Shown here: piece by piece, positions 5,228-60,221 of the stretch
Position numbering within the stretch: the stretch's first letter is position 1
Layout of the letters: each line of letters begins with the position of its first letter
Assembly: GCF_006345805.1 (NCBI RefSeq)
Contig: NC_043004.1
Coordinates: forward strand, 14,632,001 to 14,696,000
From: Octopus sinensis
Taxonomy: Eukaryota
Length of the DNA stretch: 64,000 nt
Direction: 5' to 3'
The notes under the pieces: model-generated
What the model saw: only the letters and a program-made list of their open reading frames with translations
Told to the model about the DNA's origin: nothing
Database searches by the model: none
Position numbers and translations under genes: made by a program

Positions 5228-5870
5228 GGTGCAGGCATGGCTGTATGTTGAGAAGCTTGCTTCCCAACTATATAATTCTGGGTTAAGTCTAACTGCATGG
5301 TACCTTTTGCTATAGCCACGGCCGACTAAAGCCTTCTAGGTGGATTTGATAGATGTAAACTGAAAGAAACCCGTCGCATATATATATATAATATATATAT
5401 ATATAATATATATATATATATATATATATATATATATGTATATATTTATATATACATATGTGTATATATATATAAATATACATATGTATATATACGTATG
5501 TATGTATATATATATATAACGGGAAGCTTTATGAAAATAAACAAAAGACGAAGGCAGGTGGAAAACAAACGAACAATTGTATTAGTATGGCGCTCAGGAA
5601 ATATAAATAAAATAAGTCTTTAACGTTTCGAGCATATATATGTATACACACACATATTTGTTTTTATATATCAATGTGTGTTTGTTTGTGTCTATTTCTT
5701 GTCACTCACCAGCGCTTGAAAACCGGTGTTGATGTGTTTACGCCCCGTTATATAGAGGTTCGCCAAGAATGAAATCGATAATATAAATACTAGGCTTCAA
5801 AAATAAAAATCCTATGGTCGATTAAAACAATTCAGCATTGCAGTAGTGAAATGATTGTAACAAGTAAAAA
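5228..5870 (+). mobile_element. tRNA-SINE family C (CORE-like, with an internal (TA)n/(TG)n tract), degraded, with a nested mini-element
   Basis: Matches the other family C copies (GGCGCAGGAGTGGCTGTGTGGTAAG...GAAACTGAAAGAAGCCCGTCG-microsatellite-...GAAACAAGTAAAAGA). Confidence 0.8.
5518..5633 (-). mobile_element. Penelope-like mini-element fragment in (TA)n, truncated inside its hammerhead-like motif
   Basis: Minus strand starts GCTCGAAACGTTAAAGACTT. Homologous to 41108-41283. Confidence 0.55.
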
Positions 5871-6137
5871 AAAAAGATAAAACGATAAGTCTAAATATAA
5901 GTGAACCAAAGGTGAGCGCGAGCGCGATTAAAAACGGGGGAAAGAAAGTCAACGTGATTCCTCCAGCTACGTTAAATAGAACCCACATCTATTCACATCA
6001 CATTTCAATGCCTTGCGAAATGAGACATAATGAACAATGTATTTGTAAGACACACAAGGGATAGAAAGGCCAGTGTTGAAATATCTGTAAACACAAATGG
6101 TCAAACAGGGATGATCTGCAAATAATTAGTAATCACA

Positions 6138-6550
6138 AACACCACCAACACCACCACCAACACCACCACTACAACCAACACTATAGCACCACCACTACCA
6201 CTAGCACCACCACCACCAACACCACCAACACCCCCACCCCCACCATTACCACCACCATGAACACCACCACCAGCACCACCACTACCACACAACAACCACT
6301 ACCACTACAACAACCACTACCAGCACCACCACCAACACCACCAACACCATTACCACTAGCCCCACCAGGAACACCACCTACAGCACCACCACTACCACTA
6401 CAACCACCACGATTACCACCAGCACCAACACCACCAACACCACCACCACTACATCCACCACGAGCACCACCACAACCACCAACACCAATACCACGACCAC
6501 CACCAGCAGCAGCAGCACCACCACCACCACCACCATCACCACAACTACAA
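6138..6550. repeat. Degenerate (CCA)n trinucleotide repeat
   Basis: CCA/CTA/GCA/ACA triplet array; the Pro-, Gly- and Val-rich ORFs are by-products. Confidence 0.9.
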
Positions 6551-7089
6551 AATTGGCAAGACGCTGGAAAATTTGCAGTATTTGCAAAAAACCTTGATGC
6601 ATTCAAAATTATCCTTCGCTAGAGATCGATGTTTGCATTATACATATCAGCTAGCGATCATGTTGTCGCTTATATAGATTATACATAGAATCAGAGCCGG
6701 CTACATGCAAACCACACATCTGTTCTGTCAAGCCTGAGCTGACTCTGAAAAGCAATAACATAAAATATTGTATTTTGTAATTATCAGTGTGTCAGTATAT
6801 GTATAGGTGTCCGATTAAGTGTGTAAAATATTCAAATGACAAAATACAGTAATTTATTTGAAAATTTTATTTCATCGTTTTTTTTTCTTACCAAATATGT
6901 TATTTCGTACAACCAAACTGGTATGCTTCAAATTCTGGATAGTTATATTAAAACTCTGAGATTTCAATGTAAACATGAGGAATGATTTCCTGAATATATA
7001 AACAACTGATCTTAATCAGCTTCGTTTTTTTTAATCGTCATTTAATGGTATAGCCCAATGTTTATAAACTTAATACATATATAAGGGTA

Positions 7090-10000
7090 TATGTTACATA
7101 CAAACATACATACGTACATACATATGTCTATATATATACATAAATATGTATATATCTATACATACATACTTACATATATATATATTATATATATATATAT
7201 ATATATATACATATGTATACACACACACACACATATATATATATATATATATATATATATATATATATATATATATATTATATATATGTATAAACATATA
7301 CATATATGTATAAATATATATATATTAATGTATATATACATATGTATACACACACACACACATATATATATATATATATGTGTGTGTATATATATATATA
7401 TATATATATATTATGTATATATATATGTGTGTATATATATATATATATATAATATATATATATATATATGAATATATACATACAGGCATATATATGTATA
7501 TATAGACATATGTATGTGTGTATATGAATATAACTGTTTTATACATGCAAGTTTACGTCTATATTCATATAAATATACAACGTTTCTGATTAGCATTATG
7601 TACATATGTATGAACAATATATGTATATATGTATGTACGTCTATATATGTATATATATATATATATATATTATATATATATATATATATATATATATATA
7701 TATGTATATATGTATATATGTATATAATATATATATATATATATACATATGTCTATATATATATGTATATGCATATGTAACTCAAGTGCAGTTACAAAAA
7801 TTATGAGCGTGAAATGATGTATATTAAAATAATTACCAACAAAATACATATATATATAAAGGATATTAACTGAATGAATATATGTGCATGCACCCACATA
7901 CGCAGACACACACACGCAGACACACACATAGACACACATATATATATGCATATGTATATGTAGCTATTCGTGTTTGTGCATGCCTGAGTGCCAGCATATG
8001 CAAGAATTAGTTTTAACACACATACACTTAGATATGCACAGACACAATCACACTGACGCCTATAAATATATATATATATATGTAAGTATATACATATACA
8101 CACATATATGTATATATATACATACATATTGATATATATATATATGTATATATGTATATATATATGTATATATACATATATATATATATATATACATATA
8201 TGCATATATATGTATATATGTATATATATGTATTATGTATATATATATATATATTTATATATATATATATAATATACAAATACAAATCTCTTGAATGCAT
8301 ATTGTTTTAATATTAAAATACAAAATGACATATGCGCATAAAGTTCCCAAGATGTTCAGACCATGAAATTACGTAATCCAATTATGTGCTTCAATTGTTG
8401 TTTATTGGAATAATAAATGAATTCTTCATTTCGACTGTTTAAATACTTCATAAATCGATAGATACAATGCAATAAATTCTTTCGTTTCTGTAATAGCTTA
8501 ACACAAATATGCGATCATATTTTCTCTGTCTTATAGCTTGCACTTACATGTATCTGTTTATCAGTAGCACACTGCATGTGTTTGAAAGAATTAGGAGCCA
8601 TGTTTGGAAACGATATTTCTCTGTGATTTTCAAATTATATATCACTAAACAATTGCGTAATCTAACGCGTCAGAAATATATATTGAAACTTTTCATTGCG
8701 TATGTGTATTAGGTATATATATATTAATATATATATATATATATATATATATATATATATATATATATATATACATATGTATATATATATTATATATATA
8801 TATATATATATATATTATATATATATAAATACACGCATATGTGTCTGTAGATATATATGTTTGCAGATATATATATACATATATATTTATCTGTGTATAT
8901 ATGTATATATATATATATATATACACATCAATTTTCACGTATGTACACCTTTATTTATATATTTGTACGGCTGTGTTTTTAGTTTTTGTGTACAAATGCG
9001 CGTGTCTGTTTGTGTGAGTGAGGCGATAATCTATAAATACATAGATATATAATGATTTTGTGTGTATTATATATGTGGTAATACATCTGTATCCCTTAAA
9101 ACGCTGTTCGTCAGATTTTCGCGATAGGGATATATGACTATAAAATTAACACTTAATATTATGTATGCCGATCTAATTAAGTTTATTTTTAATTTTTACT
9201 CGAGTTGAAAGCATTTCTGCATTGTGTCAAGTTTATGTAAAAATTACCCCCATATCAACACAGAGACTTACTTTGAATATTACATTGATACAGAAAAATT
9301 CCTGTGAGAAGCAAAAGGGAGTTTTATCTCCAAGAACTTCTCTCGTGAGGCAAGTAAGCCAACGTATCATAATAGCACTGGAAGTGATACACTTACTGCT
9401 AAAACTATTGCTTTTTGGCATATGAAGAAGTAAGCAGTAGAGATAATATAAAAGGAATATTTCCTCCGCTTGTAGGACACACACACACACAAAAAAACAT
9501 TTGCAGCAATTCAGTCATAGTGGAATAAACTTTACATGAATCTGCTTTGCAACAGAATTTAAACTATGCATCATATATACATGATGCATAGATATTATGT
9601 ACATACATAATATCTATGTATATATATTATAATTAATATTGTATCTATATTATCTATATATCTATATTAGATGCGTGTACATGTGTGCCTACGCTTATGC
9701 ATGTATAAGTATGTGCATGTAATGTATGTATATACACACATATACATATATATATATATGCATATATATATACGTACGTATAACTATAGATATATTTTAT
9801 ATATGTATACACAAATATATACATACATACACACACACACATATATATATATATAATATATATATATATATATATATATATATATATATATATATATATT
9901 TGAACATATGTATGTATATATATGAATGTGTGTGTGTGTTGACTAGAATTATAATGTATTTGTCGTATTTTCATCCCTGAATTTAGAGCTCTATATGATA

Positions 10001-58531: not shown

Positions 58532-59789
58532 CTTGTAAAATATAGAGCATTGTTCAGCTGCATGCTATTTATACATACATACATACATACATACATACAT
58601 ACATACATACATACATACATACATACATACATACATACATACATACATACATATGTATATGTATGTATCTATGTATGTGTATATACACACACACACGCAC
58701 GCAAATATATATGTATGTATACATATAGTATACCAATGTGTAAAGGTAGGAAGAGTCTCACGTGGTTAAATAATATTTGTGAACACAAACAGAGATAAAA
58801 CGAAATATGAGGGAATTGAGTGTCAACATAAATGAATACATTTACCGCAAAATCCATTTATATTTTCATTGCTTGTAATAAATTTTCATCTACTGATCTT
58901 CTGCATTAGTGTGCATACAGACACACCGACCGACAAACCTTCACACGTATTCGCAGACAAGCGAACTCACACACACACACACGCAAACACACACACACAC
59001 GAACACATATATAGATGTATAGGAATTTACGTACTTATATAAACCATTTATATTTAAATGCTATTTAGATTGTATTTGATATTGATGAGTACAACGATAT
59101 TCTCATTCATTCACACCCTTTACATCTATATATGTATGTGTGTATACACACACACACACACATATATATGTATAAAATATATATATATTTACATTTATAT
59201 ATATGTATATATATATATATATATATATATATATATACACACACAAACACATATATGTCTGTGTTCATTTTCCCTGTCTGTGTGTGCATATATACACACA
59301 TATATATATGTACATGTGTGTGGGTGTATGTGTGTGAATGTGTACGAATAATTGATCGCTTTACTGAAAATGATAAATGAACACTACTGTGCAATATTTA
59401 TATATAATGTTCTAATACTAAATCACATTTTGTGCTATTTACCGAATATTTGTATAAATTATTAATAAAATACTTTTAAAACTGGGAACTTAATTTTCCT
59501 GATGATTTATGGAGCGCACTATATTTGTGTTTATAAGGTTCGCATTTTAAATTATATACTCATATACGTGATTGTTCCTTATTACTCATGTAACAACCTC
59601 TCTACGATATATGCCACTCCGCTTTTCACCTCAACATCCGCTCTAAGTGTTTCTCTATTTCTCTCTATATCCCCTCATATTCAGGGAAGATAACCCATCC
59701 ACATCAACGTTTGCTTGTTAAAACGTATTCCTCGAGTTCTGAGCGTTTCCTCACGTCTGCAACGTGGATACCTTAGATTTTGTAATTAT

Positions 59790-59853
59790 ATAGAGACTGA
59801 CGAGGTGTCTACAAGGCTTTGCTTTGTGGATGCGAAACCTTGGATAACTCTAT
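59790..59853 (+). ncRNA. Degenerate type I hammerhead ribozyme with long stem II
   Basis: ATAGAGA-CTGACGA-G-[13-bp stem GTGTCTACAAGGC TTT GCTTTGTGGATGC]-GAAA-CCTTGG-ATA-ACTCTAT, just upstream of (TA)n. Confidence 0.6.
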
Positions 59854-59971
59854 GTCTAAGATATAAAATTTTCGTTGTAATATATATATATATATATATA
59901 TATATATATATATATATATATATATATGTGTGTGTGTGTGTTGTGTGTGCCTGTGTGTGTGTGTGTGTGTG

Positions 59972-60221
59972 TTGATAGAAATGATAAGACAACAAAAAAA
60001 TGAAAGAGACCTCGATATAATGTAAATAGAGGAATTTATCTGTAAATATAAGTGACAATTATTCTGTAGCCATGATAAAACTGCGAGTTTCAGATGTCGG
60101 GGCGGAAAGGTTATTTTCATACCATTTTTTCGATGGCCGGTTAACTCACATCCCAAACTCGGAATTTTATCATGGCTGCCGAATAATTGTCACTTGTTAT
60201 ATTTACAGATAAATTCCTCTA
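59972..60221. mobile_element. Fold-back Penelope-like mini-element (arms 60027-60097 and 60148-60221)
   Basis: Inverted arms of about 70 bp, both starting at the CATC.(G/C)AAACTCG hammerhead remnant. Same family as 22770-22932. Confidence 0.7.

Follow-up and report, generated by a model that had tools for sequence, protein, structure and literature searches.

Short hammerhead-bearing repeats beside TA microsatellites of Octopus sinensis as probable 3' ends of Penelope-like elements

A stretch of 64,000 nucleotides of the Octopus sinensis genome (NCBI RefSeq assembly GCF_006345805.1, contig NC_043004.1, positions 14,632,001 to 14,696,000 of the forward strand; hereafter the window, in whose own coordinates all positions are given) carries several short repeats with hammerhead ribozyme motifs, or remnants of them, next to (TA)n microsatellites. 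The window has 33% GC and 94 tandem-repeat rows, mostly TA-based, and the genome spans 2.72 Gb. An earlier note on this DNA had placed hammerheads or remnants at seven sites, labelled here as families A (45832), B (45631), C (59790), D (22770, with 59972), E (41196, with 5518), F (32870) and G (10653). These sites are very probably short insertions of the hammerhead-bearing 3' ends, known as pseudo-long terminal repeats (pLTRs), of several families of Penelope-like elements (PLEs), which likely entered pre-existing (TA)n by means of the elements' own endonuclease and reverse transcriptase (RT), with F and A likely being protein-free passengers. The copies and motifs in the window are the following.

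5518-5636, minus strand: E-related subfamily copy, cut within stem II, no core; its 3' end abuts the TA tract 5378-5518
22772-22933, plus strand: D copy consisting of the pLTR end of a Hydra-clade element; begins in the core, TA after it
32762-33203, plus strand: F copy with an inverted arm (about 32762-32872) and a direct part (32870-33203) that starts after the core; TA on both sides
41109-41274, minus strand: E copy from the 3' end of a Penelope-like element that is not of Hydra type; the core at 41227-41221 reads CTGTTGA, helix III only a CG palindrome
45594-45772, plus strand: B copy with a short inverted arm and a Hydra-type 3' end, TA on both sides; core CCGACGA at 45635-45641
45815-45977, plus strand: A copy, 5'-truncated, with the short 3' end, TA on both sides
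45832-45874, plus strand: intact minimal type I hammerhead with self-complementary helix III; core 45836-45842, GAAA 45859-45862, predicted cut after 45870
59671-59882, plus strand: C copy, Hydra-type 3' end followed by (TA)24; core 59797-59803, closing pair of helix III mutated
59972-60225, minus strand: diverged D subfamily copy (about 80%), inverted arm 60149-60225, core absent

Six of the seven sites belong to repeat families beside (TA)n. In searches of the genome itself, in which 40 candidates were scored per query and candidate numbers are a first look and not copy numbers, the A query (45815-45905) gave 863 candidates and at least 44 matches that were 100% identical over all 91 nucleotides, B gave 2113 and 1920 (two queries), C 183, D 1862, E 4296 and F 1117. 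The region 10606-10780 around G returned one candidate, namely itself; the site, listed as weak from the outset, is single-copy and was rejected. The proposed pairings of 22770 with 59972 and of 41196 with 5518 proved right at the level of subfamilies (about 80% and about 74% identity).

The motif at 45836 is the sole intact hammerhead motif in the window, 45635 is a variant with one change, and the others are mutated or cut. The C copy at 59797 has the full core, but an A replaces the family's G at position 16.2 and an A-A mismatch stands at the base of stem I. The D copy at 22770 begins within the core, and the core is absent from 59972-60225 (D subfamily) and 5518-5636 (E-related). The E copy reads CTGTTGA at 41221-41227 (A6U), as do 23 of 30 E relatives; here and below, counts per family refer to the 30 best-scoring copies of each, a sample biased to the window's own subfamily. 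The core-like word at 32870 was discarded as an inversion junction joined to stem II, the real F core lying 13 nucleotides further upstream and missing from this copy.

B, C, D and E are, to judge from the coding sequence with which longer copies are collinear, truncated 3' ends of protein-coding PLEs and not independent non-coding mini-elements. For D, a complete element was found (locus L317), in which a 717-codon open frame lies between two pLTRs. Its protein has RWK, DKT, CxCX5C, CxxC and CxH, the motifs which, in the available portion of PMC8557442, define the Hydra clade, nearly all families of which insert into (TA)n; assignment to this clade is by comparison of these protein motifs. 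Among the 30 D loci, three reach a GIY-YIG endonuclease upstream and one reads on into an open reading frame (ORF) downstream. A search of the genome with the D protein gave 150 scored relatives and a homologue search gave 923, with no informative name among the 120 matches listed. For B, 100 matches to an upstream motif (some loci counted twice) included five copies besides the reference locus that cover the full 815 nucleotides upstream, and four of these five (L383, L386, L393 and L402) reach a Hydra-type RT-endonuclease that is 37-50% identical to that of D. In the B protein DKT, CxxC and CxH are present, the linker is altered in the copy read, and the frames are broken or truncated. A collinear Hydra-type endonuclease piece was found in 6 of 30 C loci (endonuclease pieces only), and an endonuclease-like piece upstream is common to 3 of 30 E loci, one of which also matches a 781-amino-acid RT-GIY-YIG protein of the genome (E 9e-6). 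The link to a coding parent appears weaker for E than for B, C and D. The Penelope origin suggested by the earlier note was thereby supported, with B, C and D collinear with Hydra-type coding sequence and E with another endonuclease fragment; of the autonomous PLEs sharing the 3' ends, which it had asked for, the full-length, open-frame D element was found, besides longer copies of B and C collinear with coding sequence.

The genome yielded 5029 GIY-YIG candidates, with open RT-GIY-YIG frames of 775-781 amino acids, and one of its proteins is, by eye, close to Hydra-1_Obim. Two more open-frame families (781 and 775 amino acids, RVT_1 and GIY-YIG) have 3' ends with a hammerhead-like motif followed by (TA)n. 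The 781-amino-acid family (L221:1721-5080, L222) has many near-identical open frames, and a 3' hammerhead-like motif with a core of U3-A8 form; a further long open frame, of 320-479 codons, lies upstream and overlaps the start. The 775-amino-acid family (L224:2245-4569 on the minus strand, L225) has a minimal hammerhead about 500 nucleotides past the stop, with a GTAC helix III and a U-U at the base of helix II, and ends in TA. In the window itself, a decayed Hydra-type endonuclease fragment lies at 53695-54096 (plus strand; 30% identity to the D protein, E 4e-8), and no hammerhead was seen behind it by eye.

All families share the insertion anatomy known from published work: the 5' end is truncated to a variable degree and bears an inverted arm, and the 3' end occurs in two alternative forms (about 60-110 nucleotides apart, a spacing read by eye). 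The inverted arm was present in 18 of 27 copies of A, 22 of 29 of B and 9 of 25 of D. Arm junctions lie at short palindromic overlaps, one of them common to 12 of the 24 full-5' A copies and similar ones in B, and because the junctions fall there, a head-to-head join of cDNAs is supported. Copy ends never coincide with the predicted cut site in any family, and most copies span both sides of it; therefore, the template was uncut or re-ligated.

From this anatomy and from PMC11167929, as far as that source is available, a Penelope protein might nick both strands of a TA tract, two cDNAs would be primed at two internal sites of the RNA and would usually stop early, and the two cDNA ends would be joined head to head at short palindromic overlaps to give the inverted arm. 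The hammerhead, located just upstream of the priming sites, would ride along and be copied through uncut, so that cleavage would likely be unnecessary for insertion. Lone truncated copies are likely inert.

The 5' ends are not distributed alike in all families. In B, 29 of the 29 best copies end within 41 nucleotides of the core, and extension by more than 100 nucleotides upstream of the core was seen in 0/29, versus 34/55 for C and D (Fisher p 3e-9; the query starts differ). This pile-up directly upstream of the hammerhead is real in B, and a transcript start at this point or a stall of RT would explain it alike. A fixed 5' end for B was ruled out by a pattern search of 199 copies together with longer fetched loci. 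In the E loci (L122-L150), 5' ends lie 54-74 nucleotides upstream of the core in 19 of 29, near an ATG, which is partly an effect of the query start.

The association with TA tracts was counted in copies with a located 3' end, after six duplicate or array loci had been dropped. (TA)4 was found within 8 nucleotides of the 3' end in 24/26 copies of A, 27/30 of B, 12/23 of C, 27/30 of D, 15/29 of E and 11/28 of F, as compared with a background of 4.8% among 45,266 flank positions and 6.2% across the window. TA stood on both sides in 18/27 (A), 20/29 (B) and 12/25 (D) copies, compared to 5.8% expected by chance for one side. It was also considered that the elements seed the tracts by templating or by TA tails and so drive the microsatellite load, as the earlier note had allowed when it wrote that they target or seed TA. 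The strong association at the 3' side speaks for seeding, as do several element ends that are AT-rich or ATA-like and overlap the tract. However, TA is found on the 5' side too, and the template beyond the 3' end point, readable at the internal junctions of the D partial tandems (upstream pLTR) and of the F array, contains no TA tract there. Most of the window's 94 tandem-repeat rows are without such an element, and the available part of PMC8557442 names (TA)n as the target into which Hydra and Naiad elements insert. Seeding is thus very unlikely, and the TA tracts are most likely targets, because TA flanks both sides and the tandem junctions lack it. By splitting a tract, each insertion does add one tract.

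Within 45594-45977 of the window, the unrelated families B and then A share one TA tract, and such nesting is common in the fetched loci. A GC-richer repeat at 47020-47370 (plus strand), which we take to be SINE-like (short interspersed nuclear element) from its look, recurs in many loci and often adjoins TA tracts; the TA neighbourhood is therefore not peculiar to the hammerhead families.

That all families are retrozymes, i.e., short RNAs excised by the hammerhead, circularised and re-inserted, is very unlikely. The idea draws on F, which is tandem, ORF-less, has one hammerhead per unit and has copies above unit length, and on A, for which no parent was found. Against it, longer copies of B, C, D and E run on into coding sequence, by which the retrozyme reading is refuted for these four; copy ends are off the predicted cut site in every family; apart from F, the families occur as dispersed or inverted copies and not as multimers; and the cores of B, D and E are altered. 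What persists of the proposed non-coding, retrozyme-like mini-elements is that F fits the description and A may stand alone, whereas the other four families derive from the ends of coding elements.

Seen as an insertion of PLE type, F is likely a retrozyme that bears Penelope insertion marks, as its unit and copies suggest. The unit of 547 nucleotides has a longest stop-free frame of 71 amino acids and no PLE protein match, and it exceeds the range of retrozyme monomers (about 150-450 nucleotides). One array holds 11 head-to-tail units of about 550 nucleotides, six of which pass the hammerhead check, three of them consecutive; by its sequence it would count as an active non-LTR (long terminal repeat) retrozyme under the working definition given in the accessible part of bioRxiv 10.64898/2026.07.22.740005. 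The dispersed copies are longer than one unit in 8 of 27 cases and have inverted arms, two 3' ends and TA flanks. The unit may have been copied from a multimeric or circular template.

A is a probable short non-autonomous family of about 260 nucleotides, very young, with a longest frame of 37 amino acids. In all 24 exact matches to its 5' 26-mer, none shares upstream sequence except its own inverted arm or TA, and both arms run to the same end in 16 of the 24. Three older relatives with other stems start at about the same 5' point. The RNA that serves as template for A may have a fixed start, about 41 nucleotides upstream of the core. No tandem array of A was seen. The A-covering contigs (three runs guessed to be RNA and one other, none recorded as RNA) contain no start, end or joint of the element and are uninformative on expression or circles. 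A-related subfamilies (L189:730-1180, the L004 flank and L155) share the 3' 170 nucleotides of A, have a different helix II and a compensating helix III, and start 25-40 nucleotides upstream of the core. At L020:1240-1485, A is inserted at the end of the 3' end of another abundant repeat, which has a CTGATGA word and a TA terminus. Searches by blastn and tblastn through 30 GIY-YIG loci, 30 Hydra RT loci and every other locus fetched gave no parent for A or F.

On balance, we give about an even chance to a joint picture in which the genome holds two kinds of protein-free Penelope parasites. F would be a 547-nucleotide hammerhead retrozyme, and its dispersed copies, in which two priming sites, the inverted arm, the TA target and lengths above one unit make up the complete signature of Penelope insertion, would be direct anatomical evidence for the mobilisation of a retrozyme by a Hydra-type protein. 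A would be a still-active, SINE-like RNA of 260 nucleotides whose start is fixed shortly before an intact hammerhead. Taken with the pile-up in B, this would imply that most insertions are fed by transcripts that start in the pLTR, upstream of the hammerhead.

The hammerheads themselves are preserved to different degrees. The claim of several families with different stems and a kept architecture held, as family copies retain the core, GAAA, UH and paired stems with differing stem sequences. Across families helices I and II are paired and helix III is short and palindromic, with an irregular base of helix II in D; in the A-related subfamilies helix III varies (ACGATTGT / ACAATTGT / ACGATCGT), each form being self-complementary. 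A conserved CUGANGA/GAAA core was found in part of the families. It is canonical, including UH, in 28/28 copies of A (which were selected at 100% identity), in 14/27 of C (10 not parsed) and in 19/29 of F (7 not parsed), but altered in B (CCGAYGA, U4C, in 18/30), in D (CCGAAGA, U4C, in 24/30, open-frame copies included) and in E. U4C is reported, in the part of PMC3088659 at hand, to lower activity in vitro and yet to allow viroid infectivity. The changed cores in B, D and E, even in open-frame D, would fit a relaxed need for cleavage. A very common E-related family (flanks of L058, L095 and L021) combines a helix III of CG only with cores that read CTGATGA, CTGAAGA or CCGACGA, which suggests that the A6U core of E may be derived.

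In the window, a type I descriptor matched 45836 with an exact core and 45635 with one altered core base (CCGACGA), where 60 dinucleotide shuffles gave on average 0.0 and 0.03 such sites, so that the motif count is above that of shuffled DNA. A second descriptor, run without L159, L169, L333 and L334 (tandem or inverted partners), found the same two window sites versus 0.01 in 100 cruder shuffles, and three further motifs in 442 kb of unrelated flanks versus 0.03 in shuffles. Minimum-energy folds of single motifs were mostly without a hammerhead fold, as expected for dimer-type motifs, and were not used. That the motifs are chance matches in AT-rich DNA within ordinary repeats is hardly credible: Rfam gave 0 matches on the window at the gathering score and no hammerhead among the 150 of 448 matches listed at E<=10, the motif is perfect at 1 of the 7 window sites only, folding of the A motif is no better than that of shuffles (z 0.36), 10653 is unique DNA and the core at 32870 is a junction artefact, but descriptor matches exceed shuffles, family copies keep core and paired stems, and position and form are as in the published Hydra hammerheads (PMC8557442, in part), so that the chance reading is refuted at the family level and holds only for 10653.

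Several points weigh against the interpretation as PLE 3' ends and their passengers. The upstream piece of E has no Pfam match, no RT was found for E among its loci, and no intact B or C frame was found among the loci examined. The TA association is weaker in C, E and F (52%, 52% and 39%), an empty insertion site was never encountered, and TA tracts make any target-site duplication unreadable. B looked equally bounded before it gained a coding parent, so the boundary of A could be a sampling effect, and the 26-mer search of A overlooks copies with one change. A and F are without a parent ORF, so we infer their mobiliser, and the tie of F to the Hydra clade consists of a 7-nucleotide helix III and the insertion marks. 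In addition, the 30 best-scoring copies per family favour the subfamily in the window.

For annotation, this means that thousands of hammerhead mini-elements would be corrected to Penelope ends lying in TA tracts, with no evidence of their making the tracts. F is a natural test case for the proposal that animal retrozymes are moved by Penelope proteins, given the Penelope insertion marks on its copies and the open-frame candidates in the genome. Whether these elements depend on hammerhead cleavage could likewise be tested on B, D and E, since changed core bases occur in these abundant families, open-frame D included.

The earlier note knew of no such system described for cephalopods. In the available part of the supplement of PMC8557442 (Craig et al. 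2021), however, Hydra-1_Obim of Octopus bimaculoides is given with (TA)n preference and a hammerhead, together with cephalopod Naiads that prefer (TA)n. The same source, as far as available, describes truncation, inversion, tail and (TA)n bias of PLEs, with (TA)n also as the Naiad target, and the helix III form of B and D, GAAACTC-N-GAGT, in coral and sea-cucumber Hydra elements. Octopus Penelope expansions (PMC8967140) and 235 hammerheads in the giant squid (PMC6962438) are also on record in the accessible parts of these reports. No A-like or F-like families in cephalopods were found in the literature searched, a search that had subscription papers, Repbase and the bioRxiv supplement outside its scope.

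B to D resemble Hydra-1_Obim and the Hydra clade in the C-terminal GIY-YIG, the protein motifs and the 3' hammerhead with a 7-nucleotide helix III, and the present families share with this clade the (TA)n preference, 5' truncation, inverted arm and tail. B, C and D appear to be families other than Hydra-1_Obim, as two D motifs and the helix III word of B and D were not found in the portion of the supplement at hand, where FASTA line breaks could hide a match. Compared with the Hydra elements described there, B and D differ in U4C, D in having pLTRs, and the tails are longer than the stated 30-40 bp.

According to the accessible part of PMC4209133, PLE pLTRs carry minimal hammerheads, mostly as lone motifs from truncated elements. 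These agree with the motifs found here in being type I, with a short helix I, a short palindromic or absent helix III and an extra base before helix II, and also in occurring as thousands of lone copies, in opposite-strand pairs 100-700 bp apart and in many sequence families per genome. In contrast, U4C and A6U are not among the core variants described in that part, and cephalopods are not mentioned in it.

Non-LTR retrozymes have monomers of 150-450 nucleotides (Cervera and De la Pena 2020, PMC7229834). F is the same as these, to the extent that PMC7229834 and Li et al. (bioRxiv 10.64898/2026.07.22.740005) are available, in its non-coding tandem repeat, one type I hammerhead per unit, low GC, dispersed monomers beside an array, and PLE kinship; it differs in its 547-nucleotide unit and its PLE insertion marks, and is known here from genomic sequence alone. 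Families B-E do not fit the non-LTR retrozymes.

The mechanism is modelled on PAc, a Poseidon element from Anolis (Frangieh et al. 2024, PMC11167929, available in part). Its protein nicks AT-rich DNA on both strands and begins cDNA synthesis at two places within the RNA, which bound the tail; for insertion in vitro, hammerhead cleavage is not needed. PAc belongs to another clade and host, and the families here are compared with it by anatomy alone. Taken together, the repeats do not form a novel retrozyme system; by their coding sequence and 3' ends, B, C and D are probably new families of the known Hydra-type PLE kind.

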